A DNA stretch of 64,000 nt from Planctomycetota bacterium. GTDB taxonomy: Bacteria; Planctomycetota; UBA1135; UBA2386. Both the position numbers and the translations under genes were made by a program. Below the pieces are notes generated by a model. It ran no database searches. It was given only the letters and a program-made list of their open reading frames with translations, and was not told the origin of the DNA. Positions 40,528 through 64,000 of this stretch are shown here, one piece after another (position 1 is the stretch's first letter; every line of letters begins with the position of its first letter). The stretch is taken from assembly GCA_965228735.1 (NCBI GenBank), contig OZ245838.1, positions 6,720,001 to 6,784,000 of the forward strand, read 5' to 3'.

Positions 40528-40646
40528 ATCGCCGTTCACCGACGGTGGATGGACGGGTCGATCGACGAGGATCCGACACCGCCGGCCTCGAAACGGGCAG
40601 TTCTGGCCGAGACCACAGGTGGCATGGGTTTCGCTACACTGGGGGC

Positions 40647-46622: not shown

Positions 46623-47414
46623 GTGAAGCGCTTCAAGGAATCGCTGAAGGACGCCGTGCGCCAGATGGCGTATCGGACGTCCGTGGACAGCCTCAAGAAG
46701 CGCGGCGTCCAGCAGGTCAACGTGCTCGGCATGGACCGCATCGTCTCGCTCGTCGAGGCGGCGGTGCACAAGAGCCTCAAGAGCAGGCTCGTCGGCATGG
46801 AGCGCGAGGCGGTCGCGGATGCGACCAAGGCCGAGTTCGTGCGCCTGATGCGCAACAACGAGGATCTGCAGCGCGAGAAGAGCGAGATCGAGCAGCAGAA
46901 GGAGCGCGCGCAGGAAGAGGTCGACATCATGCGGCGCGAGATCGCGCAGCAGGAGCAGGCCCTCAAGACCCGGCTCGACGAGGGCGCGCTCGAGGTCGCG
47001 AGCCGCTACGAGGGCGAGAATGCCGTGATCGCGCAGAAGGTGGCGGACGTGATGCGTTCGCTCCAGAGCCAGGGCGGCCTCGCGGGGGCCGAGACCAAGG
47101 TCATCGAGCTCGTGATGGACATCGTCCAGGACGAGCGCAAGGAGGCCGAGGAGGCCCGGGCGGCGCTCCGCGACCGCGAGGTCGAGAACCTGCGGCGCCG
47201 GATCACCAAACTCAACGACTCGCTCGCGCAGACCGAACATCGGTTGCAGTCGGTGTCCGCGATGAAGAACATCGACGACGGCATCTCTTCGATCTACCGG
47301 GAGGTCCAGGGGCTCGACGCCTCGGACCAGCAGGCCGGCAAGAAGAAGGAGCTCATGTCCGAGATCTTCCGCGCCAACCTGGAGTTGCAGCAGAAGGTCA
47401 AGAGCCGGCAGTAG
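46623..47414 (+). CDS. Coiled-coil cytoplasmic protein
   Basis: E/K/Q/R-rich heptad pattern; starts 2 nt after the upstream stop. Confidence 0.8.
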   Translation: MKRFKESLKDAVRQMAYRTSVDSLKKRGVQQVNVLGMDRIVSLVEAAVHKSLKSRLVGMEREAVADATKAEFVRLMRNNEDLQREKSEIEQQKERAQEEVDIMRREIAQQEQALKTRLDEGALEVASRYEGENAVIAQKVADVMRSLQSQGGLAGAETKVIELVMDIVQDERKEAEEARAALRDREVENLRRRITKLNDSLAQTEHRLQSVSAMKNIDDGISSIYREVQGLDASDQQAGKKKELMSEIFRANLELQQKVKSRQ

Positions 47415-47479: not shown

Positions 47480-48559
47480 ATGACGGAATCGCCCAAGAGC
47501 CCGGAGACCGATTCTCCGGAGAAGGACCATGGCGTCCTCTACATCGGGATGGACCTCGGCACGTCGCGCACTTCGGTGTCGGCGAGCAACGGCGTGCGCG
47601 AGACGGTGCACTCCGTGGTCGGCTACCCGAAGGACGTGGTCAGCAAGAAGCTGCTGAAGCGCGACGTGCTGTTCGGCGCCGAGGCGATGGAGAAGCGCCT
47701 GTCGCTCAAGATGTACAAGCCGCTCGAGAAGGGCGTTCTCAAGTACACGGGCGACGCGGAGAAGGACGCCGAGGCCAAGGCCAACCTCAAGGCCGCCGAG
47801 GATCTGATCGGGGAAGCGATCCGGCTCGCGAAGCCGCGCCAGGACGAGCTCGTCTACTGCGTGATCGGCTGCCCGGCCGAGGCCTCGATGAAGAACCGCG
47901 AGGCGATCATCGAGGCCGCGCGGTCGCACGTCGATTCGGTCATGCTCTGCAGCGAGCCGTTCGCCGTCGCCTACGGCCTCGACTGGCTCGAGGACGTGCT
48001 GGTCATCGACATCGGCGCGGGCACGACCGACCTCTGCCGCATGCACGGCACGATGCCGGAGGACGCCGACCAGGTCACGTTCGACGTTGCCGGCGACGCG
48101 GTCGACCAGGCGCTCGACGCCGAGATCGAGAAGAACTGCCCCGGCGCCCAGCGCACCGTGCAGATGGTCAAGGAGATCAAGGAGCGTTGGGGCTTCGTCG
48201 GGGACGCATCGGAGCGCGCGATGGTCTCCCTGCCCGTCAACGGCAAGCCGACCGAGTTCGACCTCACGGACTCGATCCAGACCGCCTGCAAGATCCTCGT
48301 CGACCCGATCGTCGGCGGCATCCACGAGCTGGTCAGCTCGTTCGACCCCGAGTTCCAGAACAAGCTGAAGAACCGCGTCCTCCTCGCGGGCGGCGGCTCA
48401 CTCCTCAAGGGCCTCGACTCGGCGATCGAACGCGCCCTGCAGGAACGCCTCGGCGGCGGCAAGGTCATCCGCATCGAAGAACCGATCTACGGCGGCGCCA
48501 ACGGCGCGCTGAAGATCGCGCATGACATGCCGGCTGACTACTGGGAACAACTCAAGTAG
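47480..48559 (+). CDS. MamK-like bacterial actin
   Basis: IGMDLGTS, SVVGYPKDVV, SEPFAVAYGLD, IDIGAGTTDLC, EDADQVT..AG, IKE, AGGGS, GALKIAHDMPADYWEQL; recalled MamK motifs (SVVGYPKD, DIGAGTTD, EDQVTL, YW.QL) match. Confidence 0.88.
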   Translation: MTESPKSPETDSPEKDHGVLYIGMDLGTSRTSVSASNGVRETVHSVVGYPKDVVSKKLLKRDVLFGAEAMEKRLSLKMYKPLEKGVLKYTGDAEKDAEAKANLKAAEDLIGEAIRLAKPRQDELVYCVIGCPAEASMKNREAIIEAARSHVDSVMLCSEPFAVAYGLDWLEDVLVIDIGAGTTDLCRMHGTMPEDADQVTFDVAGDAVDQALDAEIEKNCPGAQRTVQMVKEIKERWGFVGDASERAMVSLPVNGKPTEFDLTDSIQTACKILVDPIVGGIHELVSSFDPEFQNKLKNRVLLAGGGSLLKGLDSAIERALQERLGGGKVIRIEEPIYGGANGALKIAHDMPADYWEQLK

Positions 48560-48735
48560 TCGGGCCACGCCGCAGCCGCACGCTGGACTGCGTCGGGACT
48601 TCGGTCGCTCGTGCTCAGCGGCCAGGAGGCCGCCTCCGCGCGGCTCCCTTGCCCTCCTTGCCAGCGCACGGCTGCGGCGCGGAGAACCGGTGCCGCGGCA
48701 CGGGCAGACTTGCGGCCTTCGGCCGCTCGTCTTGT

Positions 48736-48787
48736 CACGATGTCACGTGTGACATCGTGCCCGTACGGTACCTGGTTCATGCTGCCG
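48736..48787. repeat. 11-bp-arm palindrome adjoining a single arm of the REP-like family (copy 4)
   Basis: CACGATGTCAC-GT-GTGACATCGTG, then 48759-48778 is identical (20/20) to 17710-17729. Confidence 0.8.
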
Positions 48788-48825
48788 GGTTTCGCCAGGA
48801 GGGGCTGATGTCGCCGGTGGCTGCG

Positions 48826-49545
48826 TCAGACTCCGAAGTGGGTTTGGAGGATGTCGCGGAGTTGGAAGAAGTCGGTGACTTCGTGGTTGGCCTTGGTTTG
48901 GCCTTCTTCCGTGCTGTAGCGGCCGCCGCGGCGGACTCGGACCGTGTGCCAGCCTTCGTTGTTGCAGGGGTCGATGTCGTGGGTGGGGTTGTCGCCGACG
49001 TAGAGGCAGCGGGCGGGCTCGAGCTTCATGTGTTCGAGCACGCGGCGGTAGAGCTTGGGGTTGGGCTTGCTGAAGCCGACCTGGTCCGTGAAGAAGATCG
49101 CGGAGGGGGTGAGGAACTCGAGGACCCCGAGGCGGACGACCTTCTCGGCCTGCTTGATCGTGATGCCGGCGGAGACGACACCGCGGACGAGCGGCTTGTC
49201 GGCGAGCCAGCGCAGGACCTCGTAGACGTCGTCCCAGACCTTGAGCTTGCTCCACTTGGTGTCGTGGTAGGCGCAGACGCCCGCGGCGACGATGACCGCG
49301 CGATTGTTGCCGTCCCAGGTCTCGTGGCCGAGGCGGTCGAGCACCTTGTCGAAGTGGCTGCCGTAGTTGCTCGAGAACTCGGCGATGACCTCCTGCAGCT
49401 CGCGCAGCGCCGCGTCGCGCTCGCAGCGCAGGCCCGCGCGTAGCATCGCGTCGATCGCGGCGCGACGGGCCTGATCGGCGAAGACCGACGTCGAGAACAG
49501 CGTGTCGTCGACGTCGAAGAAGATCGCGTCCAGGGCGGTGCTCAT
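48826..49545 (-). CDS. HAD-superfamily hydrolase, subfamily IA
   Basis: FFDVDDTL, SKPNP, YVGDNPTHD. Confidence 0.92.
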   Translation of the reverse strand: MSTALDAIFFDVDDTLFSTSVFADQARRAAIDAMLRAGLRCERDAALRELQEVIAEFSSNYGSHFDKVLDRLGHETWDGNNRAVIVAAGVCAYHDTKWSKLKVWDDVYEVLRWLADKPLVRGVVSAGITIKQAEKVVRLGVLEFLTPSAIFFTDQVGFSKPNPKLYRRVLEHMKLEPARCLYVGDNPTHDIDPCNNEGWHTVRVRRGGRYSTEEGQTKANHEVTDFFQLRDILQTHFGV

Positions 49546-49621: not shown

Positions 49622-49655
49622 AAAAGGCCGCGCCGATCGTAACCGGCGCGGCCTT
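49622..49655 (-). terminator. Intrinsic terminator after the secretin-like gene
   Basis: Stem AAGGCCGCGCCG/CGGCGCGGCCTT ending in TTTT on the minus strand. Confidence 0.75.
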
Positions 49656-49698
49656 CGGGGGGAACGGCTGGGCCGTTCCAATGGGGGGGCTTGTGGTG

Positions 49699-52287
49699 TT
49701 ACCGCCCGACGCTGTTCACGACGTCCGTGATCTGCGCACGCACCATGACCATCAGGCTCTTGTTCTCGTCCACCGAGCCCTCCTGCTTGAACAGGAACGA
49801 GATCAGCGGCAGGCGCGCGAGCAGCGGGACCTCGGCGCGACGCTCCTTGGTCAGCACCTGGCGCAGACCGCCGAGCAGCACCGTGCCGCCGTCCGGCACC
49901 TTGGCAGTGGTCGAGAAGTTCGTGACCACGAGGTTCGGCAGCTGCAGCGTGACCGGCAGCGTCGAACCCGCGAGCGACGTGGTGAACGTCGGGATCGGGC
50001 GGGTCAGTTCGGCGACCGTCGGGTTGAGGTTGAGGATGATGTACTTCCGGTCCTGCTGGATGACCGGCTGCACGTCGAGCACGATGCCGTCCTGGATCAC
50101 GTCGACCTTCGGGTCGGCGATGAACGCCGCCTGCGCGACCTCGACGTCGAAGTCGCGGACGTAGGCCGTCTGGTTGATCACGGCGACATGGCCGCGCTCG
50201 CGGTTGAGCACCGAGAGGATCTGGCTGTTGACCATCTCGACGTCCTGCTGCTTCTCGACGGCGCGCAGGATCACGTTGAGCTGCAGGTCGTCGAGCAGCG
50301 TCCAGCCGGCCGTCAGACCGCCGGTCGGCGACAGCGCGCGGCTCAGGTCGTTGGCGAAGTAGTTCTCCGTGCGGCCGCGGATGTCACCGTCGCCGCCGTC
50401 GTTGAAGAACGCACCCGCGAGCGGGTTGGCCGCCGGATCGCCCGTGCCGCCGTTGTCGAGGCCGCGCGACGCGTTCGACTGCAGGCCGTTGGTCACGTCG
50501 TCGAGCGGCACGACCGTGCCCTTGTTGCCCGAGCCGCCGAGGCCGCGGATGTCGATGCCGACCTCGCTCAGGAAGTTACGCGAGATCGTCAGGAACTTGC
50601 TGTCGATCGTGACGATCGGCGTCGCGAAGCGGCGCATGTCGTTGAGCACCGTCTCGACCTGGGCCTGCATCTCCGGCGTCGCGGTGACCGCGAGGAAGCC
50701 CGAGTCCTCGGCGCGGATCTCGACGCCGTCACCGTCCCAGTAGATCGGGTCGGTCGCCTCGCGAACGTTGGTCACGAGGTCGGCGATCTCGATGTAGGAG
50801 ACCGGGTCCTCGCCCTCGCCACCCGTGCGCGGCACGTCGTCGAAGCCGTCCTCACCCGGGATGTCGCGGATCTTCGGCGGCAGGAACTGCGTGCGCTGGA
50901 AGACCAGGTCGCTGACCGGGTAGATCTCGGTCGTCAGCGTGCCGGCGGCCTGCGACTTGTCGCCGATCAGGATGACGCCGTTCTTGACCGTCCACGCCAG
51001 GTTCTCCGTGCGGTCGGTCATGTGGTTGAGGAAGTCGCGCAGCGTGACCGAGCCGACGAGCTCGATCGCGAGCACCATCGACTCGGTGTCGATGATGTCG
51101 CGCGCTTCCGGCGTCACGATGATCTGCAGCTGCGTGCGCAGGCTCAGATTGCGGATCACGTCGAGGTAGGCGCCCGTGTCCTCCGTGTAGGTCAGCTTGC
51201 CGACCTGCATCGTGTTGACCTGGTCCCAGACCGCCTGGTCCATCGGGTCCATGACGGCCGTCGTCGAACGGCGCGCCTTGCGGCCGTTGGCCCGCGCCCA
51301 GACCGCGAGGTCCATCTCGAGCACCGCCGTCTGCGGCACCTTGAGCTCCTCGTCCGCCTCCAGCATGCGGCGGATCGCCCGCGCGCGCTGCAGGTAGTAC
51401 TGCTGGTTGCTGTCCTCACGCGCGGCCTTGACCGCGGCGTTGTGCATCTCGGACGCGATCACGCTCGACGGATCGACGTCCTTCGCGCGCGTCGCGAGTT
51501 CTTGCGCGTAGGCGAAGCGCTGGTTCTCGAACGCCTTCTGCGCTTCGAGGATCAGCGCATCGTGCTGATCGCGGCGGCGCTTCTCGGCGGCCTCGTTCTC
51601 GGCGCGCAGACGCTCGGCGAGGCGGGCGCTCTCGGCCTCCTGGCTCGCCTTGACCTGCTCGTCGTAGAGCCCCTGCATCTCGTCCGTCTTGGCCGTGACG
51701 CGCTGCGGCAGATCCTGCCAGTCGACGAGGTCCTTGAGCTCGATGACCTGCGCCGCGATGCGCAGCTCCTCGAGCGCGCCGGCGTAGTCCATCGTGGCCG
51801 CGAGCTCGTCGGCCTTCTGCAGCTGCATCTCGACGTTGGTGCGCGCGCGGTCTTCGCCGATCTGGCGCAGACGCGTCTGCTCCTCGGCGAAGCTCACGAC
51901 CGTGCCGACCGGCTCACCGAGCTCGGCCTGCACGCTGATCAGCAGCTCGGCGATCTCGGTGTTGCCGGGCGCCATGCTCACCGCCTTCTGCAGCTCGCGC
52001 TTGGCCGCTTCGAGCTGGCCGCGCGTGCGCAGGGATTGCGCGTTGCTGACGTATCGCTCGACGAGCACCGCGCGGCGCTGCGCGTCGACGCCCTGCGGGT
52101 CCTGCGCCGCGCCACCGGCATTGCCGCTGTTGGCCATGCCGGGGTTGCCGCCCGTGTCGCCGCCAGGGTTGTTGGCCGCGGGGGTCGGGTCCGCCGGCTG
52201 CGGGTCGGCCGGCGACATGGAGCAGGAAGCGCCGAGCAGTGCGGCGATCAAAGAGACAGCGAGAAGGCGCGATTGTTCGAGGGCCAT
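49699..52287 (-). CDS. Secretin-like outer-membrane lipoprotein with TPR/coiled-coil N-terminus (paralog A)
   Basis: Lipobox LLGAS-C; N3-like LAVTATPEMQAQVETVL; C-domain DGIVLDVQPVI, VPDGGTVLLGG, VPLLARLPLISFLF. Confidence 0.85.
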   Translation of the reverse strand: MALEQSRLLAVSLIAALLGASCSMSPADPQPADPTPAANNPGGDTGGNPGMANSGNAGGAAQDPQGVDAQRRAVLVERYVSNAQSLRTRGQLEAAKRELQKAVSMAPGNTEIAELLISVQAELGEPVGTVVSFAEEQTRLRQIGEDRARTNVEMQLQKADELAATMDYAGALEELRIAAQVIELKDLVDWQDLPQRVTAKTDEMQGLYDEQVKASQEAESARLAERLRAENEAAEKRRRDQHDALILEAQKAFENQRFAYAQELATRAKDVDPSSVIASEMHNAAVKAAREDSNQQYYLQRARAIRRMLEADEELKVPQTAVLEMDLAVWARANGRKARRSTTAVMDPMDQAVWDQVNTMQVGKLTYTEDTGAYLDVIRNLSLRTQLQIIVTPEARDIIDTESMVLAIELVGSVTLRDFLNHMTDRTENLAWTVKNGVILIGDKSQAAGTLTTEIYPVSDLVFQRTQFLPPKIRDIPGEDGFDDVPRTGGEGEDPVSYIEIADLVTNVREATDPIYWDGDGVEIRAEDSGFLAVTATPEMQAQVETVLNDMRRFATPIVTIDSKFLTISRNFLSEVGIDIRGLGGSGNKGTVVPLDDVTNGLQSNASRGLDNGGTGDPAANPLAGAFFNDGGDGDIRGRTENYFANDLSRALSPTGGLTAGWTLLDDLQLNVILRAVEKQQDVEMVNSQILSVLNRERGHVAVINQTAYVRDFDVEVAQAAFIADPKVDVIQDGIVLDVQPVIQQDRKYIILNLNPTVAELTRPIPTFTTSLAGSTLPVTLQLPNLVVTNFSTTAKVPDGGTVLLGGLRQVLTKERRAEVPLLARLPLISFLFKQEGSVDENKSLMVMVRAQITDVVNSVGR

Positions 52288-52678
52288 CGGGTCACTCGGT
52301 GCGTGCAGAAGGGCTGAAGGAGCTGCGTCGTTGCAGCTCCCGTGCCCACGTGTCGAGAGGGGCTGAGTGCCGGCACGTGGACGGGACGAAACGACCGCTA
52401 GCTGGGGGCAGGCGGCCGGGAGGGACCGGAAACCTATCTACGGCCAGGGACCGGTGCCAGCGCTTTTTCAAGGTTGGAAGTCGTTGGCAAGGCCGGCGCT
52501 GGGGCCGATTTGCGGGGCGGCGCGGTTGCCCCGGGGCAGCGTTGCGCCGGAGCCCATGCGGCCCGGGTCGCGACGGGCGGCCCGGGTTCGCCGAGGTGTC
52601 GCCGGAGGGGGCTCTGGCGGGCCATGCGGCGCTCTCGGCCAGGGCCGCGCGAGCGCGGGCCCGGTCCTTTCGGCCCGC

Positions 52679-54244
52679 TCAGCGGCCCGTCAGCTCGTCG
52701 AGGATCGCGCGCGAGCGGGGGTGGGCCTCGCAGACTGTTCGGTCGCGTCGGTCGCGCGCGTGTGGGTCGGCGCCCGCGGCCAGCAGCACGCGGACGACGG
52801 GCCGCGGATCGACGCTGCGCCCGCACTGGAACGCGTGGAACAACGGCGACGCTCCCGTCTTCTCGTCGGGTCGGTCGACGTCGGCGCCGGCGTCGAGCAG
52901 CGCGGCGACCGTCGCCGCGAACCCGGCCTTCGCCGCGAAGTGCAGCGCGGCGCGGCGCCAGTACGGGTGCACGCGGTCGGGGTCGGCGCCGCAGTCCAGC
53001 AGCGCGCGCACGTACTCGGCGTCGTCCTTCTGCGCGTGGTTGCCGGTGCAGCTCTGCCACTGCCAGCTGCTCCACGGGTCGGATTCGTAGTTCACGTCCG
53101 CGCCGTGCTCCAGCAGCAGCGGCGCGAGATCGCCGTCGAGCACCCAGCGGCCGCAGCCGACGCGGGTCGCGTCGGCGCCGCGATCGAGGAGTTGCCGCAG
53201 CAGCTCGGGGTCGGGGGCCTCGGCCGCGTGCCGCACGAGTTCGTGGCTGCGTTCGCCGACCGTGGCGCCGCGGTCGAGCAGAAGCGTTGCGGTCATCGGC
53301 TGGTCGTGCAGGACGGCATGGTAGAGCGGCGTCAGTCCGAGGATGTCGTCAGCCGGGTCGGGCGTCTCGAGCAGTTCGGGGTGGGCGTCGAGCCAGCGCG
53401 ACACGCCGATCCGATCGCCGAGGGTCGCGGCCGTGAAGATGTCGTCGCGCGCGCCGAGCTCGAACAGCAGCTCGGCCGCCGCGGTCTTGCGCTGCCGCAG
53501 CGCGCCGCACAGCGGGGTCGCGAGCGGGCCGCTCCAGTCGATCGAGGTCGCGGCCGCCGGATCGGCACCCGCTTCGACGAGAACGGCGATCACCTCGACC
53601 CGACCGCGCGTCGCCGCGAGGTAGAGCAGGCTCGGGCTGCCCCACGCAGGTTCCAGCAGTTGCGGTCGTTCGGCGAGTGCAGTGCGGATCGCGGCGACGT
53701 CGCCCTTCTTCGCGGCCTTGACCGCCGCGTCGTGGACCGGGTCCTTGCCGCAGCGATGGCGGTCGGGGTCGGGCGGGCCCGTCGGGTCCTCGTCGTTGAC
53801 GAACGCGGTCGCGAGCGGCCGCAGGGTCGCGTGGATCTCGTCGCGCAGATCATTCGATACGCCGGCCATTCGCAGCGCGCGTTCGAAGTGGCCGAGCCAG
53901 CGCTGCGCGTCGCGCGGCGCGATCCGCGCGTGGCGGTGGCGCAGCCGCAGCCCGGCGCGCGCGCGGTGGCGCGAGTAGAGCGGTTCGCCGCCGAACCACT
54001 CCTCGAAGAACATCACCTGGTTCTGCCGTTCGAGCGCCTGGTCGCGCCGGAACATCGGGCGCAGCACCGGGTCGTCGTGGATGCCGTCGTAGAGGCCCTG
54101 CACGATCCGAGCCACGGTCTCGCGGCCGCCGAGCCGGTCGAACAGCGCCGGGTCGGGGCGGAGCCGGTCGACCTGCAGGTGCAGGCCGCCGCGGTGGGCG
54201 AGGGTGGGGTGGGGGGCGTCACCCGCGGGGTGGGGTGGCATCAT
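52679..54244 (-). CDS. Truncated haemoglobin (group II-like 2/2 globin) fused to ankyrin repeats
   Basis: LFDRLGG..LYDGI..DPVLRPMF..FGGEPLY..LRLRH..RWL; then ankyrin repeats LVEAGADP, TPLYHAV, ALHFAAKAG, LLDAGADVD. GAGG SD before ATG 54244. Confidence 0.85.
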   Translation of the reverse strand: MMPPHPAGDAPHPTLAHRGGLHLQVDRLRPDPALFDRLGGRETVARIVQGLYDGIHDDPVLRPMFRRDQALERQNQVMFFEEWFGGEPLYSRHRARAGLRLRHRHARIAPRDAQRWLGHFERALRMAGVSNDLRDEIHATLRPLATAFVNDEDPTGPPDPDRHRCGKDPVHDAAVKAAKKGDVAAIRTALAERPQLLEPAWGSPSLLYLAATRGRVEVIAVLVEAGADPAAATSIDWSGPLATPLCGALRQRKTAAAELLFELGARDDIFTAATLGDRIGVSRWLDAHPELLETPDPADDILGLTPLYHAVLHDQPMTATLLLDRGATVGERSHELVRHAAEAPDPELLRQLLDRGADATRVGCGRWVLDGDLAPLLLEHGADVNYESDPWSSWQWQSCTGNHAQKDDAEYVRALLDCGADPDRVHPYWRRAALHFAAKAGFAATVAALLDAGADVDRPDEKTGASPLFHAFQCGRSVDPRPVVRVLLAAGADPHARDRRDRTVCEAHPRSRAILDELTGR

Positions 54245-54251
54245 GGCCACC

Positions 54252-55240
54252 TCACGAGGGGCCGATCACCGCGGTCGCGGCATCGGACAGGGCGGCGCCC
54301 AGCGCGTTGCCGGCCTGTGGATCGAGCACGAGCGCCTGCAGGTGCAGGGTCCAGCCGACGAGGGTGGGCGTCGGCGGAATCGTGACGGCGATGTCGGCGT
54401 GTCCCGCCGTGCCCTGAACGAACAGCATCACCTCCGGCGCGACCCGAAGCGTGCAACCGGGCAGGCCGAATGCACTGAGCTCGAGCGGGAGCGGCCCGAG
54501 GCCCGAGGACGTCGCGTCGGTGCCGAGCGCGACGATTGCCGCCGCGAGGGGCAGGTTGTCGATGCGAACGACGGCCGTCGCGCCGAGGCGCGGCGGCGCG
54601 CTGGCGGTGAGCGTCGCGCGCGGCAGGCTGCCGGCGCACCCGGCGCCCAACGTCTCGAACGACCCCGGACCGAGGATCGCCGCGCCCTCAGGATGTGGAA
54701 CCCATTGGCCGCGACGGAGATCGCCGTGTACTGCACGCCGGCGGGCAACGTCGGCACGGGGGTCAGCCACGTCAGGTTGCCCCACAGCGTGATGCTCCCG
54801 TCACTGCGGAGGCCGGCGGAGAAGCCGGACCCGGCGGCGACTCCGGTGTAGGTCAGGCCGGGCGGCAGGGCCGGGACGTCGCACTGGTGCGAGTGGTTGT
54901 ACCCCCACGCGAGCGCGACGCCGTCGCTGCGGATCGCGAGCGTGTGCCGGTAGCCCGCGGCCACGGTCGTGTAGGTCTGACCGGGCGGCAGCGGCGGCAC
55001 GAGGCATTGGCCCTCGCGGTTTCGGCCCCAGGCCACGAGCGTGCCATCGGGTCGCAGGGCGGCGGTGTGGAACCCGCCGGCCGCGATCGCCGTGAAGCTC
55101 TCGTCGAGCCACGCGTCGTTCGTGACGGTCTCGCCCCACGTGGCGAGGGTCTGGGCGGCGAGCCCGGATGCGAGGCCAGTTGCGAGGCCGGCTGCGAGGC
55201 ACGGCGCAAGAACTGCGGCTGCGGGGGCCCGCATCAGCAT
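54252..55240 (-). pseudogene. Frameshifted secreted RCC1-repeat protein with shared C-terminal domain
   Basis: Signal plus RCC1 repeats (AAGGFHTAALRPDGTLVAWG, AAGYRHTLAIRSDG) in one frame to ~54690; C-terminal domain continues in another frame to 54252. Confidence 0.75.
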
Positions 55241-55393
55241 CCGCCAACCCGGGCGGCGCAGCGGTGAGTGACATCCCATGTCGGGACATCGTAGCCGATC
55301 GTGGTCACTCCGTACACGACTCGGCCCGCCGGGTCCTCGGGGACGCGGCGGGCCGGGTTGGTGCGGCCCCATCGGTCGGGGCGACTCGGGTCG

Positions 55394-55948
55394 CTACTTC
55401 TTGGCGCCGAGGCCGCCGCCGAAGTTGATCTCTTCGAACTCGGCCTCGTTGGCGGCGTCCGCCGTGCGGGCGACGCTCTCGTAGAACACGCCGGGGTGCG
55501 GCTCGATGACGACCGGCATGAGCTTGCGCGTGCCGGGGTTCTTCGGGTCCGGGACGCGGCTCGCCGGGTCACTCGAGATGCGCTTCAGCTCCTTGGCGAC
55601 GTCCTCGATGTCGTGGAGCGGCTTCGGGCCGACCATCCACTTCACCTTGTAGTTCTCCATGACGAAGCGATACGGGCGGTCGTTGTTGGGGTTGAGGTCG
55701 TTCGGCCCCATGCCGTTCGGATACTTGGGAGAGCCCTGCGATTCGACGTAGATGCCCACGGAGAGCTGCTCCATCGGCTCGACCTGCGTCGACTGGCTGC
55801 CCTTGTCCTTCGGCAGGTAGGCGGGGAGCTTGGCTTCGAGCACTTTGAACTCGATGCAGAGGAAGAAAATGATCATCAGGAAGACGCAGTCGATCATCGG
55901 CGTCATGTCCGCCTTGGCTTCTTCCTGTGCGTCGTCGATGGCACTCAT
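55394..55948 (-). CDS. exbD: ExbD/TolR family protein
   Basis: DMTPMIDCVFLMIIFFL with the conserved TM Asp. Confidence 0.88.
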   Translation of the reverse strand: MSAIDDAQEEAKADMTPMIDCVFLMIIFFLCIEFKVLEAKLPAYLPKDKGSQSTQVEPMEQLSVGIYVESQGSPKYPNGMGPNDLNPNNDRPYRFVMENYKVKWMVGPKPLHDIEDVAKELKRISSDPASRVPDPKNPGTRKLMPVVIEPHPGVFYESVARTADAANEAEFEEINFGGGLGAKK

Positions 55949-56491
55949 CTACTTGCCCTCCAGCAGACTCTTGTTCTTCTCTTTGGTTTCCTTGTCCTCT
56001 TCGGACAGGGCGAGCTCGACCTTCCAGAACGCGATGTGCGGCTGGCTGCACTGCTTCATGATCTCGCCGATGTAGTGCCACTCGGTCCACTTGTCGGCGC
56101 GGATCAGGATCGGGTCGTCGATCAGCTTGACCATCTTGCCGCCGATGTCCTCGTCGACGATCTTGAGCTTGCCGGTCAGTTCGCCCTCGCGGCGGATGTT
56201 CTCGAGCAGGATGCGGATCTTGGTGTAGTCCTTGCCGTCGACGAGCGCGTCGTAGATCACTTCGCCCTCGAAGATCACCGAGCCGTTCTGCAGCACGTTG
56301 ATGATCGGCCGGTTCTCGGGCGGCTGGTCATCGGGCTCCTGGAACTCCGCGCGCGGCAGGATCAGGTCCTCGAGGTTCTTCTGGCTCAGGTCGATGACCA
56401 ACACGAAGAAGATCATCAACAGGAACACGCAATCGATCATGGGCGTCATGTCCATGTCGAGCTGCTCCTGAGCGACTTTTTGCATGTCCAT
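55949..56491 (-). CDS. exbD: ExbD/TolR family protein
   Basis: DMTPMIDCVFLLMIFF, ILIRADK; AAGGAGG SD. Confidence 0.9.
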   Translation of the reverse strand: MDMQKVAQEQLDMDMTPMIDCVFLLMIFFVLVIDLSQKNLEDLILPRAEFQEPDDQPPENRPIINVLQNGSVIFEGEVIYDALVDGKDYTKIRILLENIRREGELTGKLKIVDEDIGGKMVKLIDDPILIRADKWTEWHYIGEIMKQCSQPHIAFWKVELALSEEDKETKEKNKSLLEGK

Positions 56492-56603
56492 TGGTTCGCC
56501 TCCTTTGGCGGTAGGACTTCAGTAGGAGTTGGGAACGCGGACCGACGCCCGATGGTTCAACCCGCTGGCGCGCGGGTCGACTGCCGGGCGTCGATGCTGG
56601 CTC

Positions 56604-57332
56604 CTACTTGCGGAACCGCTCGAACAGGTCTTCCGTGACCGCGTTGATCTCGGTCGACGTGCGGATGACGCGGTTGCGCAGCGTGAAGAACGCGACGCCG
56701 ACCGGGATGGCGACCGTCAGACCGAACATGGTCGTGATGAGCGCCATCTTGATGCCGCCCGCGAGCTGTGCCGGCGACACCGAGCCGCCCGCGTCGGCGA
56801 TCTTGCCGAACGTGACGAACATGCCCGACACCGTGCCGAACAGACCCATCATCGGCGCGATGGCCGAGATCAGCGACAGCCAGCCGATCTTCTGGAACAG
56901 CTTGACCGACTCCTCGGTCTGCATTTCACGAACCGACGTCTGGATCGTCTCGTGCGGGTGGCCGAGCTTGGCCAGGCCGGCGCCGACGACGTTCGTCAGG
57001 TAGTTCTTCTCCTGCTCGCAGAGCTCGACGGCGTCCTGGAAGCTCTCGCCGTCGAACAGCGCTTCGAGCTCGTCGATCAGGTCCGGCGGCGCGAGCTTGT
57101 CGCGCTTGATCGTCATGAAGTTCTCGATGATCAGCGCGACGGCGACGATCGAGAGGACGATGATGAGGTAGCCGATCGGGCCGGCGTTGTCCCACTTGAA
57201 GACCTCGATGATCGGGCTCGAGGACTTGCTGCCCTCACCGCCTTCGGCTTCCTGGGCAAGCAGCGAGGTTGCCAGGACGAGCGGCGTGCCGACGGCAAGG
57301 AGACGAACGAAGGGCACTTGGTTCAGGATCAT
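56604..57332 (-). CDS. exbB: MotA/TolQ/ExbB proton channel protein
   Basis: IAPMMGLFGTVSGM..F, LAGGIKMALITTMFGLTVAIP; N-terminal signal-like segment. Confidence 0.92.
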   Translation of the reverse strand: MILNQVPFVRLLAVGTPLVLATSLLAQEAEGGEGSKSSSPIIEVFKWDNAGPIGYLIIVLSIVAVALIIENFMTIKRDKLAPPDLIDELEALFDGESFQDAVELCEQEKNYLTNVVGAGLAKLGHPHETIQTSVREMQTEESVKLFQKIGWLSLISAIAPMMGLFGTVSGMFVTFGKIADAGGSVSPAQLAGGIKMALITTMFGLTVAIPVGVAFFTLRNRVIRTSTEINAVTEDLFERFRK

Positions 57333-57604
57333 GGTGACGCGATGGCTGCGTTCCGTTCACGCAGCAGTTCAGTTAGGGGAGAGGGGGATACGAACAGCGA
57401 GCCACCGGCGATCGGTCGGCCTGGGTTGGACCGGCGAGGGGCTGGACGCCGAGAGGCAAGAAGGGGGACACCCGAAAGGGGGGCCAGAGTTTGCGGCAGA
57501 AGGCCGGACTGGGGAAGTCCCTAGGGCAGAAACCTGGGGACGGAAAACGGGGTGGTGGCGCCGCGGGCGGCGCCACCCGATGGGGTGCGGACAGCCGCTC
57601 GGCG

Positions 57605-58777
57605 CTACTGCTCCAGGGCCGCTTTGGCCCTGCTGGCCCATTCGGTCCTGGGGTAGTGCTGGACGACCCGGCGGAAGTAGGCTTGCGCGCGCGCCTTGAA
57701 CTCGTCGCCCTCGCGCGCTTGCCCGAGCTCGAGCTGGCAGCGGCCGAGGAAGTAGTTCGCGCGGGCGCTGGTGTCGCCACCGAGCGAGTCCATGACCGCG
57801 GCGCGGGCGAGCGCGAGCTGGGCCTTGCGCAGCATGGCCGGCTCCTTGTTGCCGCCCATCGCCTTGAGGAAGACCGCCTGGCCCTCACCGGCCCACGCGG
57901 CCGCGGCGAGACCCATGTCCTTGCTCTGCGTCAGGCCGTGGAAGAACGACTCGGCCCGCTGGAAGTTCTCGTCGGTGAGGAAGGTCTCGCCCTCGCCGAT
58001 CTTGCTGAGCACCTGCAGTTGCTTCAGTTCTTCCTCGTCGCCGGGCGAGTTCTGCATCGCGCTCTCGGCGGCCGAGTGGGCCGTCTGGAACTGCGTGCGG
58101 GCTTCGCCGGTCTTGTTGTTGGACGCGAGCGTCAGGCCGAGCTCGTACTTGGCACGGGCACTCCACACCGACCCGAACGCTTCGGCGATGGCGCGATCAT
58201 CGAGGGTCTTGAGCACCGTCGCGGCGTCGTCGCCCTTCTGCGCGAGCCGCAGCGCGCGGCCCGCGAGCAGCAGCGCTTCGGGAACGCGCCAATGGTCGTT
58301 GTTGGCCGTGACCCACGCCTGCGCGCGCTCGGCGGCCGTGGCTGCCGCGCTCGCGTCCGTGATCGCGGCGACCGCCGCCTTGATCTGGAAGAACTCGCAG
58401 TCGGTCACGACGAGCGGGCGCTTCGCCGCGCTGGCCGCTTCGCCGAACATCTGCGTCGCGGTGTCGAAGTCGCCGCGCTCGAGCGCGGCGCGGCCGATGA
58501 TGAACGGCTCGGGCAGGTTGCCCCACTCGACGCTCGCGACCGTGCGGCCGGGGATCTCGACCTCTTCGCCACCCTTCTTGGTGGCCTTGACCGTCTCGCG
58601 CTTGAACTCGGTGATCTCGATGCCGCGCATCGTCGCGCCGTTCTTGCGCACGAGGACGTCGCTCTGCGCGGGCGCCGGCGTCACGAACACAGTGGCCGCG
58701 ATGGTGGCGGTCAGGAGGAGCTTCCTGGCAAGGACAGGCTTCCCGGCGAGGGGCTTCATGGTGTTGTCGGTTTGCAT
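57605..58777 (-). CDS. Exported TPR protein
   Basis: Signal ending APA-Q; TPR-like ALLLAG, AKYELG, ANYFLG; CpoB-like ending VVQHYPRTEWA. Confidence 0.8.
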   Translation of the reverse strand: MQTDNTMKPLAGKPVLARKLLLTATIAATVFVTPAPAQSDVLVRKNGATMRGIEITEFKRETVKATKKGGEEVEIPGRTVASVEWGNLPEPFIIGRAALERGDFDTATQMFGEAASAAKRPLVVTDCEFFQIKAAVAAITDASAAATAAERAQAWVTANNDHWRVPEALLLAGRALRLAQKGDDAATVLKTLDDRAIAEAFGSVWSARAKYELGLTLASNNKTGEARTQFQTAHSAAESAMQNSPGDEEELKQLQVLSKIGEGETFLTDENFQRAESFFHGLTQSKDMGLAAAAWAGEGQAVFLKAMGGNKEPAMLRKAQLALARAAVMDSLGGDTSARANYFLGRCQLELGQAREGDEFKARAQAYFRRVVQHYPRTEWASRAKAALEQ

Positions 58778-58794
58778 CGTTCGGGTGCTCCGGA

Positions 58795-61650
58795 TCAGCG
58801 GTTGTAGAGGAACATGTTGAAGAGCTCCTGGCCCTTGCTGCCGAGGCTCTTGAGCGTCGCGAAGTCGTCGGTCGCGCGCGCCTTGCGGTAGAACTTCTGC
58901 GCGGTCTCCTCGTACTTGCTGTCCTTCTTCGCCGCCTGCTTGGCGAACCAGTAGCACTCCCAGTGGAAACGGTACCACTCGTAGCTGTACGGCTGGACCG
59001 CGGGGCGGAGCGCCCACTTGCGGTACTCGGTGTAGTACTTGAGGTAGGCCTCTTCGGCGCGGTCCAGTCCCGGCTCGCGGACACCCTGCCCGGTCGCGTT
59101 GAACTCGAACCAGCCGCCGAGGCAGCGCGAGATCTGGCGCTTGATCTCCCACTGCTCGGGGTTGGCCTCCTCGGCCTTCTCGAGCATCTCGAGCGCGACC
59201 GTGAACTTGCGCTGCTGCAGCAACGCCTCGCCGATCATCGGCCGGACCGTGAGGTCGACGACCTTCTGCGCGGCCGGGTCGGTGTCCTCGCCGTAGAGGT
59301 CGAGCGTCTTGCGCGCGATCTCGCCGACGCGCTGCCACTCACCGAGGGCCTCGAACGCGTTCATCGTGTTGACGAGCACGGCGATCTGCGGCTTGGGTGA
59401 GCTGTTGATGTAGTCGAGGCCGAGCGCGCTGAGCTTCTGCCGCACCTGCTCGAGCTGCTGGCGCGCGGCTTTCTGCGCGGTCTCGTCGTCCTTGCTGATC
59501 GCGGCCGTGAGCTCGTCGTCGAGCGACTTCTCCTGGTTGCGGTACTCGAGGAAGATCTCGGTCGCGAGGCGCGCGGCGCGCGTCTGGTCCTTCTGCTTGA
59601 GCGTCGCGTACATCTCCTCGGCGCGGTCGAGCTCGCCGATGTCGCAGAACAGGCGGCCGAGGTAGGCCGTCGCGATCGGGACGTTGGGGTTGCTCGGGTT
59701 GTTGGTCGAGAACGCCTTGAGCTTGGCGATCGCGTCCTGGTACTTGGTCGCGTCCTTCTCGATGTTGAGCTCCTCGTTGCCGCGCGCCTGGAAGTAGGCG
59801 AGCTGGGCCTCGAGCAGTTCGCCGCTCGCGAGCGCCGCTTCGCGGACCTGCTGCAGGCCAGCGTCGCGCGCGTCGATCTCGTTCTGCTTCGTGTACTCCC
59901 GGTACTCCTCGAGCGTCTTGATCGCCTGGTCGACGTTGCCGCCGAACGCCTCGGCCATCGCAACGCGCACCCGCGCGGTCTCGTACTGCGTGAAGTCCGG
60001 CGGCACCTGGCGGTACTGCTCGGCCGCGCGCTTGTAGTTCTTCTCCGTGAAGGCCGCGTTGCCCTCCTTGTAGAAGATCTTGCCCGCGCCGGCGATCGAG
60101 TAGGTCTTGATCAGGTTGGCGTACTGGTCGAAGACCGGATCGAGCAGCGGGTCGTTGTTGGTCTGGCGCTTGAGGCGGGTGATCGCGCGGTCGAGGCGGT
60201 CGGCAGCGTCGCCGGCCTGGTCCTCGTCGGTCGCGCCGAACTTCTCGAGTCCGGTGCCGAGCGCGATGATGGCCTCGAGGTTGCGCTCGCCGATCGCGAA
60301 CGCGGTGCCGAGCATGTCCCAGGCCTCGAGTCCGACCTCCTGCTCCTCCTGCGCGCTCATCACGGACAGCGCGCGACGCAGGCCCTGGATCGCGGCCTCG
60401 TAGTTGTCGTTCTGGAACTCGCCCTTGGCGATCTCGAACAGCATCTTGCCCGAGACCAGGCTCTGCTGGGCCTCGAGCATGTCGCGCATGGCCGACTTGG
60501 CCTTGATGCCGACGTAGTCGTTGGGGTGCTTGTTGTTGATGCGCTGCACCATCGCGATCGCCTCGGCGATCTTGCCCTGCTCGCCGGACTCGGCCTTGTA
60601 GCGCGCCTCCTCGAGCAGCATGAGGTGGCCCCAGCGCGGCGACACGACCTCGAACACCTCGAGGCCCTCCTGGCCGAACTTGGTCGCGAACTCGCGGAAC
60701 GACGCGAACAGCGCCGGGGTGTCCGGGCTGCCCTGCTCCGACAGCACCTCGGCGGTCTTGTAGAACACCTCCTGCGCCATCTCGTAGAGCAGCGCCTGGG
60801 TCTCGCCCGGCATGCCGGTGTCCGGCGCGTCCTTGAGGCTGGTCTGGATCTGATCGATCGTCGCCTGGTAGATGTCGATCGCGCCGTCGACGTCGCCGTT
60901 GACCTGGAAGCACTGCGCGATCTCGAACAGGCCGCGCAGACCGAGCGCGGTCTCCTCACCGTAGTCGAGGACCATCTCCTCGAGCTCGCCCACGGAGCGC
61001 TCGACGAGCACGTCGCGGTCCTGCTTGACCGCGCGCGCCTGCTCGCGCATGAGCACGCCCTTGCGCATCCAGAACAGGCCATACTCGATGTTCGTCCGCT
61101 CGTCCTTGCGGCGCTGCCCTTCGAGCTCCTCCATGACCTTGCTGCAGGCTTCGATGCCGGCGCGGAACGTGTCCGACGCCTCGCTCTCGAGCTGGCCCAC
61201 GGCCTCGGGGTTCTCCTCGCGCGCGATCTCGAGCTCCTGCAGCAGGAACTGACCGAACTCCTGCGAGGCGTCCGCGAGCGTGCCGCGCGCCTGCAGCAGG
61301 ACCTTGTCGTCGTTGCTGCGGCCGATCAGCTCCTTGGACTTCTCGATCGCTTCCTTGAACAGCGTGCGCTGGACCTCGCGGTCGGCGCGCAGCTTGGCGC
61401 CCTGGTAGCTGATCTGGACGCTGAGTTGGGCGATGCGGTCCTGTTCACCCGCGGCGCGATGCTCCGTCGCGAGGCGGTCGGCCTCGGACTTCGCGAGTTC
61501 GATGAAGCTCATCTTCTCCGCGAGCGCGCGGACGAAGTCGAGCTCGCGATCGAGCGAGTCCTGGGCCAGGAGGAGGGAGGACGAAACGCCGGTCAACGCC
61601 GGGCCGAGAAACGCCGTGAGAATGGCGAGTCGAATGCCGGTCACAAGCAA
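58795..61650 (-). CDS. Large exported TPR/alpha-solenoid protein
   Basis: Signal ending LLA-Q; many TPR-like units (LFEIAQCF..GDVDGAIDIYQ, FYKEGNAAF..NYKRAAEQY). Confidence 0.82.
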   Translation of the reverse strand: MLVTGIRLAILTAFLGPALTGVSSSLLLAQDSLDRELDFVRALAEKMSFIELAKSEADRLATEHRAAGEQDRIAQLSVQISYQGAKLRADREVQRTLFKEAIEKSKELIGRSNDDKVLLQARGTLADASQEFGQFLLQELEIAREENPEAVGQLESEASDTFRAGIEACSKVMEELEGQRRKDERTNIEYGLFWMRKGVLMREQARAVKQDRDVLVERSVGELEEMVLDYGEETALGLRGLFEIAQCFQVNGDVDGAIDIYQATIDQIQTSLKDAPDTGMPGETQALLYEMAQEVFYKTAEVLSEQGSPDTPALFASFREFATKFGQEGLEVFEVVSPRWGHLMLLEEARYKAESGEQGKIAEAIAMVQRINNKHPNDYVGIKAKSAMRDMLEAQQSLVSGKMLFEIAKGEFQNDNYEAAIQGLRRALSVMSAQEEQEVGLEAWDMLGTAFAIGERNLEAIIALGTGLEKFGATDEDQAGDAADRLDRAITRLKRQTNNDPLLDPVFDQYANLIKTYSIAGAGKIFYKEGNAAFTEKNYKRAAEQYRQVPPDFTQYETARVRVAMAEAFGGNVDQAIKTLEEYREYTKQNEIDARDAGLQQVREAALASGELLEAQLAYFQARGNEELNIEKDATKYQDAIAKLKAFSTNNPSNPNVPIATAYLGRLFCDIGELDRAEEMYATLKQKDQTRAARLATEIFLEYRNQEKSLDDELTAAISKDDETAQKAARQQLEQVRQKLSALGLDYINSSPKPQIAVLVNTMNAFEALGEWQRVGEIARKTLDLYGEDTDPAAQKVVDLTVRPMIGEALLQQRKFTVALEMLEKAEEANPEQWEIKRQISRCLGGWFEFNATGQGVREPGLDRAEEAYLKYYTEYRKWALRPAVQPYSYEWYRFHWECYWFAKQAAKKDSKYEETAQKFYRKARATDDFATLKSLGSKGQELFNMFLYNR

Positions 61651-61864
61651 CTCCGGATCGGGGACTGAAAGTCGTCGCGCGCAGTCGTTACCCGGAATGA
61701 GGTAACGAGTTACGGCTATACGAGGGCGGGTCTCGGAGGGGCCGCCAAGAGGCCCGCCGGGGAGGGAGAACGAAGGACTATAGCGACTCGTTCACTCGTT
61801 CCAACGATTAACGACCCCACCGGACGACCCGTCCTTGCCCGATCCGGGCTTCGGCCGCCAATGC

Positions 61865-61898
61865 AAAACGGCCGGCCCCGCGTCGCGGGGCCGGCCGT
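61865..61898 (-). terminator. Intrinsic terminator after secretin-like paralog B
   Basis: Inverted repeat ACGGCCGGCCCCGCG/CGCGGGGCCGGCCGT ending in TTTT on the minus strand. Confidence 0.75.
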
Positions 61899-61950
61899 CG
61901 GAATTGGCCGTCTCGGGATCGGCCGTCTCGGTTGCCGATGGGGGCGGCGC

Positions 61951-64000
61951 TCAGCGCGCGCTCGTCATCAGCACTTCGCCGCTCGGCGTCGTGACCGCGC
62001 GCGGCTCGTGCTCTTCCATGAGGATGATCTTGGCGCGGATCAGGATCAGGATCTTGCGGTTCTGGACCGACGTGCCCTGACGGCTGAAGAGCCAGCTCAG
62101 GCCCGGCAGGCTGCCGAGCAGCGGCACCGTCGAGCGCAGGTTCTGCTTCTCGCTGAGGCGCATGCCGCCGAGCATCATCGTGCCGCCATCGGGCATCGTG
62201 ACCGTCGTGCGGACGCGCTGCAGTGTGACTTCGGGCAGCTGGATCGAGATCGGCTGGCCGACGCCGAGCGTCGTCGTGAACGTCGGGATCGGCAGCTGCA
62301 GCGACATGACCGTCGGGCGCAGCTCCATCGTGATGAAGCGCAGGTCGCTGTCGACCACGGGGCGGACGTCGAGGGCGACGCCGTCGTGGACCGTGCCGAT
62401 GACCGGGTTGGCCACCGCGGCCGCCTGCGCGATTTCGACCTCGAAGTCGCGGATGTAGCTGATGTTCCGCAGGTGGTGCATCGAGGCGCGCGAGTTGTTG
62501 TAGATCAGCAGGCGCGGGGCCTCGATCTGCTCGCTGCGCTCCTGCTTCGCCACGGCGCGCAGCACGATCTCGACCTCGGTGTCGTCGAGGAACGCGTACT
62601 GGAGCGCGAGGCCGCCGGAGTTCTCGAGGCCGCCGTTGCGGCCGCCGAGCGTGCTGTCGTAGAGGCCCTCGGTGCGGGCCATGAGGTCACCGTCGAGGCC
62701 GTCGTCGAGGAAGACGCCCGGCTCGGTGCCGGTGCCGACGAGGCCCGGGGTCGCGGCGTTCTGCTGCTGGCGCGGGCCGAACTCGTCGAAGCCGGCGTTC
62801 GTGCGGATGCCGTTCTTCTCGAGGCCGCGGCCGGCGAGACCTTCGGACGACTGGTTGCCCAGGCCGCGCAGGTCGATGCCGAGGTCCTCGAGGAACTGGT
62901 CCTCGACCTTGAGGAAGCGCGACTCGACGTCGACCTGGATGCCGACGTGGCGGCGCAGCTCGTTGAGCAGGCGGTCGATCTCCATGTGCGCCTCACGATC
63001 GGCGCGGATGTAGAGGATGCCGCTCAGCAGGTTCATCGTGAACGGGTTGCTGTCCCACTTCTCGGGCGCGACCGTCGCGGTCAGCAGCTCCATGAGACGG
63101 CCTTCGTCGACGACCGATGGCATCGGGTCTTCGTCGACCTCGGGGAACAGCGGCAGGTCGTCGCCCGGCACCGGCAGGCGCAGGTCGGGACCCGGGTTGC
63201 TGCGCACGCCCTGGATCAGGTCGGAGACCATGTAGGGCTGCAGGTAGAGCAGGCCGATCGCGTTCTCCGGGCTGACGAGGTGGACCATGCCGTCGCGCAC
63301 GCGGTAGGCGACGCCGGTCTGCGACTGGATCGCGCGCATGGCGTCCGACACCGAACGGTTCGGCAGGCGGAAGTCCTCGAGCGTCGTCTGCTCGGCGGGC
63401 ATGTCGCGGACTTCCTGCGTCACGAAGAACGTCACGCCCGTCAGGCCGGCGTAGTAGCTCGCCCAGTCGTCGACCGTCGCGCTCGAGAAGTTGTGCTCGA
63501 GGCGGGTCTCGTTGAGGATGCGCGCGATCTCGCGGTTCTCCGGCGTGTCGAGCGCGGCCGGCGGGGTGTAGCTCGCGGCGGTCCGCTGCGACACGTTCGC
63601 CCAACGCGTCGGATCGAACACGACCGAGTCGACCTGCGGCAGGTTGCTGTGCTGCAGCTCGAGGAACGTCTTGTTCCACTCGGTGCGCCAGCGCTCGCGC
63701 GCGGTCTCCATCGCCGTCGCGTGGCGCGCGCGGTCCGCGAGGTCACGCAGCGACATCGCCGTCGGGTTCGTCGGGTCGCGCAGCAGCGCTTCGTCGACGT
63801 AGTTGAGCGAGCGCTCGTACTGACCCGACTGGAACGCCAGGTTGGCCTCGTCGAGGATGCGCTGGACCGCGAGCTCCTTGGCCGCGCGGGCCTCGGTCTC
63901 CTGCTTGCGCAGCTCGGCGGCCGACTGCTCTTCGCGGCGCTTGATCTCGTTGACCTGCGCCTCCTGCTGGGCGTCCTGCGCGCGCGCGAGCAGCATCTCG
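61951..64000 (-). CDS. Secretin-like protein (paralog B), 5' end outside window
   Basis: QVDVESRFL, YIRDFEVEIAQ, DGVALDVRPVV, MPDGGTMMLGG, VPLLGSLPGLSWLF. Confidence 0.85.
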   Translation of the reverse strand, partial: EMLLARAQDAQQEAQVNEIKRREEQSAAELRKQETEARAAKELAVQRILDEANLAFQSGQYERSLNYVDEALLRDPTNPTAMSLRDLADRARHATAMETARERWRTEWNKTFLELQHSNLPQVDSVVFDPTRWANVSQRTAASYTPPAALDTPENREIARILNETRLEHNFSSATVDDWASYYAGLTGVTFFVTQEVRDMPAEQTTLEDFRLPNRSVSDAMRAIQSQTGVAYRVRDGMVHLVSPENAIGLLYLQPYMVSDLIQGVRSNPGPDLRLPVPGDDLPLFPEVDEDPMPSVVDEGRLMELLTATVAPEKWDSNPFTMNLLSGILYIRADREAHMEIDRLLNELRRHVGIQVDVESRFLKVEDQFLEDLGIDLRGLGNQSSEGLAGRGLEKNGIRTNAGFDEFGPRQQQNAATPGLVGTGTEPGVFLDDGLDGDLMARTEGLYDSTLGGRNGGLENSGGLALQYAFLDDTEVEIVLRAVAKQERSEQIEAPRLLIYNNSRASMHHLRNISYIRDFEVEIAQAAAVANPVIGTVHDGVALDVRPVVDSDLRFITMELRPTVMSLQLPIPTFTTTLGVGQPISIQLPEVTLQRVRTTVTMPDGGTMMLGGMRLSEKQNLRSTVPLLGSLPGLSWLFSRQGTSVQNRKILILIRAKIILMEEHEPRAVTTPSGEVLMTSAR

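Follow-up and report, generated by a model that had tools for sequence, protein, structure and literature searches.

We examined 64,000 nucleotides of a Planctomycetota genome (assembly GCA_965228735.1, contig OZ245838.1, positions 6,720,001 to 6,784,000 of the forward strand). This whole stretch is called the window below, and coordinates without a prefix refer to it. Its right-hand part carries a gene block in which two secretins bracket two tetratricopeptide repeat (TPR) proteins and the ExbB, ExbD and ExbD subunits of a motor. An initial annotation, made from the letters alone, had proposed that these genes encode an envelope machine driven by the proton motive force. Related families, genomes and fetched loci are labeled f, G and L, respectively; G000 is the source genome.

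Organization of the gene block

All genes of the block lie on the minus strand, in the order that the initial annotation had given. Secretin B (64599 to 61951) is a lipoprotein of 882 amino acid residues; the first 599 nucleotides of its gene, including the true start, lie beyond the window, which contains positions 61951 to 64000. It comprises a TPR/long-helix N-terminus, N0/N3-like domains and a secretin core. Next come a large TPR scaffold, TPR951 (58795 to 61650; 951 residues), and a small one, TPR390 (57605 to 58777; 390 residues). Both have signal-peptide-like N-termini, and TPR390 continues with a beta domain (residues 40-84) and a TPR superhelix. They are followed by an ExbB/TolQ-type motor subunit (56604 to 57332; 242 residues) and by ExbD proteins of type 1 (55949 to 56491; 180 residues) and type 2 (55394 to 55948; 184 residues). 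Beyond a two-gene interruption, the block closes with secretin A (49699 to 52287), a lipoprotein of 862 residues and a full-length paralogue of secretin B.

The two interrupting genes lie outside the conserved block. One (54252 to 55237) encodes RCC1 repeats in two reading frames, with an apparent frameshift near 54690, and an unnamed C-terminal domain; the other (52679 to 54250; 523 residues) encodes a truncated globin with ankyrin repeats. The interruption is a local insertion: it is absent from three relatives (L002-L004), one of which has a different insertion after secretin B. The unnamed domain is encoded at three places in the window (54252-54785, 40257-41984 and 42091-43863) and is found in 70 of 301 genomes of the phylum.

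Terminators had been predicted after both secretins, and strong hairpins with TTTT are indeed found there, at 61867 to 61899 after secretin B (15 bp, then TTTT; z -4.06) and at 49623 to 49656 after secretin A (15 bp, TTTT at the end; z -4.40), both on the minus strand. A terminator scanner, whose rule demands five T in eight bases, listed neither. The only sigma-70-like site, at 61804, does not exceed chance (one found, 0.5 expected). Contigs from two DNA sequencing runs, possibly of the source sample, cover 50130-64000 and 52176-64000 without any difference from the sequence. In two RNA runs from the same sample, secretin A, both ExbD genes, ExbB and secretin B were covered by short contigs only, at a depth of about 3, a result that does not show transcription.

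Secretins, motor subunits and TPR proteins

Both secretins match the Pfam Secretin model (PF00263) well above its cut-off of 27.5 bits (A, 80.6; B, 87.3), and the translations of both contain the shared core motifs noted earlier, including PIPTFTT. They align with each other over 846 columns (hhalign P=100) at 30% identity. The lipoprotein cysteine is retained in nearly all orthologues (Cys21 of B in 40/41, Cys22 of A in 40/43). An AF2 model of secretin A (mean pLDDT 76.6) consists of a disordered linker, a region of TPR and long helices, two alpha/beta domains and a beta core; because its pTM is 0.39, the arrangement of these domains is uncertain. The TPR/helical N-terminus that had been claimed for the secretins is thus modelled in secretin A at residues 65-316, and the predicted secretin helices reach about 60 residues. 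Foldseek searches with the beta core returned BfpB, PilQ, InvG and GspD (E 1e-22 to 1e-17). Membership of their families is another matter: the two secretins score 53.8 and 76.5 bits against a PilQ cut-off of 284, and 50.4 and 64.9 against a GspD cut-off of 351. Elsewhere in the source genome, an open reading frame at G000:C1:5784460-5786124 (match at 5784661) resembles secretin A over residues 674-804 only, at 45% identity, and is not a Pfam secretin; similar partial matches occur in G001.

The motor genes are equally recognizable, with 88.9 bits to MotA_ExbB (PF01618) for ExbB and 52.6 and 53.4 bits to ExbD (PF02472) for the two ExbD proteins, over the cut-off in both families. Residues T167, T200 and T201 of ExbB and the transmembrane D20 of each ExbD are invariant (46/46); from E. 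coli ExbBD, we take these to be the proton-path residues of the motor. The best NCBIfam match of ExbB is TolQ, at 72.7 bits below the equivalog cut-off of 221, and TolR likewise stays below its cut-off (24.6 of 127.3). In an ExbD tree, the first and second types form separate clades (support 0.99 and 0.80), and in a tree of secretin cores (145/146 sequences) first and second secretins fall into two old clades (support 0.82 and 0.96) spanning some 20 families; further secretin duplications occurred separately in f77/f48/f28, f19, f53 and f60. Secretins A and B, as well as ExbD1 and ExbD2, are therefore ancient paralogue pairs. One solitary type 2 ExbD (131 bits), without an ExbB neighbor, is encoded at L144:9919-10440.

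The TPR proteins are less distinctive. TPR951, which is present in most related loci, matches TPR_19 (48.9 bits), and TPR390 has only sub-cut-off TPR matches in Pfam; both show weak matches to CpoB/YbgF. The AF2 model of TPR390 (pLDDT 91.8) combines a five-strand beta domain with an array of TPR helices, for which Foldseek found generic TPR superhelices only. Sequence searches of the PDB gave generic matches. One cluster of TPR390 look-alikes in the ESM Atlas is commonest in Verrucomicrobiota, which we regard as a lead only. A count of TPR390 matches in 285 of 301 genomes was rejected as an orthologue count, since it includes generic TPR matches from a different TPR-ExbB-ExbD cassette. This second cassette (L139:6145-14104, that is, G000:C1:954144-962106; also in L080-L083) encodes a 1044-residue TPR protein, ExbB, one ExbD and a 1219-residue protein with a squalene-cyclase-like domain. 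Akkermansia MUL1 reportedly has TPR and ExbB/ExbD content as well, and the second cassette may be its closer counterpart.

Conservation and kinship with pilus modules

Conservation of the block was assessed in 62 mapped loci (63 were fetched and one duplicate was dropped), mostly picked for two secretin matches on one contig, which biases the fraction with nested order upward. The complete order secretin-TPR-TPR-ExbB-ExbD-ExbD(+)-secretin is present in 35 of them, and another seven have one inner gene undetected, giving 42/62 loci from 26 families. The linkage is thus kept across many families, and the nested order persists at 20-35% protein identity. Among near relatives not chosen for linkage, secretin A was matched in 39/41. 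In 34 of the 39, the two secretins share a contig and are no more than 20 kb apart; in the other five they are split or single, mostly near contig ends. The C-terminal 400 residues of secretin A have a match in 210 of 301 genomes of the phylum. An apparent absence of the secretins from f13 (0/24 in a first search at E<=1e-25) proved to be a sensitivity artefact, as a profile search found diverged family secretins in 7/7 f13 genomes.

Several flanking genes recur as well. Beyond secretin B lies a uracil-DNA glycosylase-like (UDG) gene, and secretin A is usually followed by a HAD hydrolase gene, here at 48826 to 49545 on the minus strand (TIGR02253-like, below cut-off). A sulfatase-like gene precedes secretin A in 22/62 loci. 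Between the HAD gene and an actin-like gene (47480-48559, plus strand), positions 48565-48794 form a repeated element, marked by 5-6 times the read depth and by contig breaks. The actin-like protein scores 409.9 bits with the NCBIfam MamK model (cut-off 400) and 205.8 with BeeR; upstream of its gene are a coiled-coil gene and a CpsD/ParA-like P-loop gene (46623-47414 and 45856-46620). It adjoins the block in eight fetched loci of the source genome's family (L044 duplicates L002).

In 32 of the 62 loci, genes for a PilM/N fusion (PilM'), a PilO-like protein (PilO') or an FN3-bearing PilP-like protein (PilP') are found upstream of secretin B. Their order in relatives is that of the Akkermansia Amuc_1098-1101 cluster as given in PMC5332112 and PMC13174399. 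The best NCBIfam family of PilM' is Amuc_1101, with 254-263 bits vs 148-180 for PilM in three of four proteins tested and 95 vs 79 in the fourth, all below the cut-off of 650. The PilO' profile gives a long, weak match to Amuc_1100 (6lad residues 1-212; E 0.029). Judged from these sequence relationships, the block descends, in trimmed form, from the outer-membrane/alignment module of a type IV pilus and is kin to Akkermansia MUL2.

Profile searches of the source genome (a single contig, 93% complete) found neither PilO' nor PilP', nor an Amuc_1101-like PilM/N gene upstream of a secretin, and the triad is present in none of eight loci of the source genome's family, one of which ends short upstream. 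The family therefore appears to keep a seven-gene version from which the PilM' module has apparently been lost. A fused PilMN gene of the source genome (G000:C1:1411210) was considered as a relocated PilM' and rejected, as it belongs to another paralogue clade (support 1.0) and coexists with PilM' in 5/5 genomes. That clade member lies in a locus (L105:6007-12827, or G000:C1:1406006-1412826) with a PilO-like gene, a 904-residue TPR gene and genes with pilin motifs, where no secretin was seen; this locus is conserved in the source genome's family and beyond.

The block can be compared with several known systems. Like Akkermansia muciniphila MUL2 (Amuc_1098-1102), its relatives have a PilM/N fusion, PilO-like, PilP-like and secretin genes in the same order; unlike MUL2, the locus encloses the genes for the motor and the TPR proteins, a pilin resembling Amuc_1102 was not recognized, and both secretins fall far short of the Amuc_1098 family. 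With the type IVa pilus PilMNOPQ system and the type II secretion system (T2SS) it shares the secretin fold and, in relatives, a PilM-type scaffold; in contrast to these systems, its secretins are an ancient pair of lipoproteins with a TPR/helical N-terminus of about 250 residues, and no pilin, PilC or assembly ATPase is found in any of the 62 loci. Searches for the prepilin motif, PilB/PilT and TonB (PF03544) were negative in the same 62, and the 26 kb past position 64000 showed no gene for a pilin, an ATPase or TonB. The motor belongs to the MotA/TolQ/ExbB and ExbD families of the ExbB-ExbD-TonB, TolQ-TolR-TolA and Myxococcus AglR/Q/S motors, including the invariant Thr and Asp, and its two ExbD types have a parallel in AglQ and AglS. 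Unlike the TonB and Tol motors, it is encoded without TonB or TolA, and its linked partner in the outer membrane is a secretin rather than a TonB-dependent receptor or Pal. The type IX secretion system of Bacteroidota, which is proton-driven and serves many proteins sharing a C-terminal domain, is a functional analogy only; no homology of components was found, and a search for SprA_N was uninformative, with no match in the source genome or in any control. In sum, the parts come from known families, and on the features tested the block is not a type IV pilus (T4P)/T2SS, TonB, Tol-Pal or MUL2 locus.

Conventional systems are encoded elsewhere in the source genome, which has seven Pfam secretins over cut-off (five of them canonical), five ExbB-family genes, two TonB_C and 14 T2SSE matches. 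These include PilMNO-PilQ (L138), T2SS-like GspD/E/F (L132), Tad-like and MSH-like loci, several of these labels having been read from translations. No T2SS or T4P operon lies upstream of the block, and TonB transport has a separate ExbB-ExbB-ExbD-TonB locus of its own. With the linkage conserved as described above, neither of the observations that the initial annotation had named as contradicting its proposal was made. The description "unlike the classical systems" given in the initial annotation holds in these respects; it fails in that the block descends from a T4P-type module akin to MUL2.

A candidate proton-driven secretin pore

Gene content and order indicate that the two lipoprotein secretins, the two TPR proteins and ExbB-ExbD1-ExbD2 are likely parts of a single machine that spans the envelope and is powered by protons. 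Protons would cross the inner membrane through ExbB and a heterodimer of ExbD1 and ExbD2. From this motor, force would reach the long helical N-termini of secretins A and B by way of the TPR proteins in the periplasm or of a TonB-type anchored protein from another locus. These N-termini may gate a secretin ring built of A subunits, B subunits or both, through which macromolecules would be pulled into the periplasm. The PilM/N-PilO-PilP-like module, not found in the source genome, would be an accessory scaffold. The full proposal, a pilus-derived secretin pore driven by protons via ExbB-ExbD1-ExbD2 and periplasmic TPR struts and importing macromolecules, is a tentative one, to which we assign somewhat less than an even chance.

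Import is suggested by analogy. In A. muciniphila, periplasmic accumulation of glycans depends on mul genes (PMC13174399), and mul1A is called a mucin transport gene in PMC12570417. In planctomycetes, macromolecule uptake is described in PMC5394234 as uncharacterised and is tied there, speculatively, to outer-membrane complexes contacting the inner membrane; crateriform structures are said there to fasten the two membranes together.

Several observations weigh against this proposal. Contact between the parts, gating and heteromeric rings are inferred from the genes, and the two hairpins together with strain-specific insertions point to several transcription units within the block. The kinship of the secretins to MUL2 is distant, with 45.5 and 75.4 bits against an Amuc_1098 cut-off of 750, below their MshL and PilQ scores. 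The sulfatase-like gene is weak evidence for glycans, as the two members inspected have TLP[AS]H, which differs from the canonical sulfatase motif. The modules are also separable. Cultured-type families such as f13 and f85 mostly have the PilM' triad, a single long family secretin and the TPR-TPR-ExbBDD cassette at different places, with triad-secretin linkage in L113 and L116. In f35 (L119:7261-17085), three prepilin-type genes and one resembling PilX come directly after PilM'-PilO'-PilP'-secretin. Seven of 20 genomes (G041, G246, G126, G065, G139, G114 and G310) have a family secretin and no cassette-type ExbD1 at E<=1e-20, a threshold at which a diverged copy could be missed. The same is true of G195, which has a partial family secretin, and the only match in G156 belongs to the other cassette. 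This separability corrects the initial interpretation and speaks against obligate coupling. In favor of coupling, neither a family secretin nor an Amuc_1101-like PilM was found in f40 (G141, G182) and f78 (G192), where ExbD1 matches are absent or of a different cassette; likewise, in 9/9 genomes checked (5/5 and 4/4) where the motor is absent from the secretin locus, the cassette is found elsewhere in the genome.

In another reading, the secretins would serve a T4P-like filament, with pilins and ATPase encoded elsewhere, and the TPR-ExbBD genes would encode an independent motor that drives TonB-type anchored proteins and has stayed close to the secretins because regulation or assembly is shared. 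Descent from a PilMNOP-secretin module and the prepilin-type genes of f35 speak for it, as do the pilin and ATPase loci of the source genome that have no secretin in the 20 kb examined (L105/L143, L130 and L131). Candidate motor clients are present too: the source genome encodes three SxxxH-anchored (TonB-type) proteins with proline-rich linkers and without adjacent ExbBD (G000:C1:3922590-3928110 and 3907366-3908403), two with a squalene-cyclase-like domain at the end and one with TonB_C there, and an SxxxH-type gene precedes the TPR-ExbBDD cassette in 4/4 loci where it has moved away from the secretins. For this reason the motor may have a partner in trans, a point on which the initial interpretation needs correcting. 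Against a filament, the genome has its own PilMNO-PilQ locus and five canonical secretins; the linking PilM' orthologue was not found in the source genome, its fused PilMN being of the other clade, and 26 families have the motor genes placed between the two secretin genes. We consider this reading rather unlikely. A mere inherited neighborhood without functional coupling is very improbable: the HAD and UDG genes are likewise conserved neighbors and the modules are split in several families, but the nested order is kept at the low protein identities given above, and the same bracketing recurs where secretins were duplicated separately, in f77/f48/f28.

Two further readings accept the coupling and change its purpose. 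The unnamed C-terminal domain in the first interrupting gene raises the possibility of a proton-powered exporter, type IX-like but working via secretins, for proteins ending in this domain of about 130 residues. The source genome has it in 241 proteins (6.3% of the genome), within 15 residues of the C-terminus in 224; the N-terminal parts of 229 of these proteins form 94 clusters, 13/13 domains tested lack a Pfam or NCBIfam match, and two family secretins are present in 67/70 genomes with the domain. Most known secretins export. Against an exporter, kin genomes in this co-occurrence count are not independent, many twin-secretin families lack the domain (f30 0/11, f26 0/4, f32 0/3, f28 0/2), no domain-bearing gene is conserved in the block, only 127/241 proteins pass a crude signal-peptide proxy, and the T2SS-like locus L132 is also available; we think it improbable. 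A shade less probable still is a structural or force-generating tether, in which the motor pulls on secretin-anchored TPR struts, pinning the membranes as crateriform "press studs" or moving surface adhesins as in Agl-Glt gliding. ExbB with two distinct ExbD types matches the AglR/Q/S layout, and the weak CpoB/YbgF matches of both TPR proteins, the TolQ affinity of ExbB (below cut-off) and the long modelled secretin helices would suit such a role, as would the membrane fastening by crateriform structures described in PMC5394234. On the other side, both secretins keep a complete beta-barrel core fold, and no Pal/TolB or Glt genes were recognized in the loci, where no profile search for them was made.

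In the secretin systems described so far, power comes from cytoplasmic ATPases, and motors of the ExbBD type work through proteins like TonB or TolA. Coupling of a secretin to an ExbBD-type motor, if true, would give the Gram-negative envelope a new route of energy coupling, and we found no published description of the block in the literature searched. With a chance that we put close to even, if short of it, the block represents a new type of envelope machine, in which secretins A and B form a heteromeric pore and the proton gradient, acting via TPR struts, takes the place of an ATPase. It would be encoded by seven genes in this family and would serve either as the planctomycete macromolecule importer or as a secretin-based counterpart of type IX for hundreds of tagged proteins. 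The seven-gene version of the source genome's family suggests a minimal set for reconstitution, and the components are also present, unlinked, in cultured-type families. The block thereby names genes that can be deleted to address what PMC5394234 presents as open, namely macromolecule uptake in planctomycetes and the composition of the crateriform complexes.

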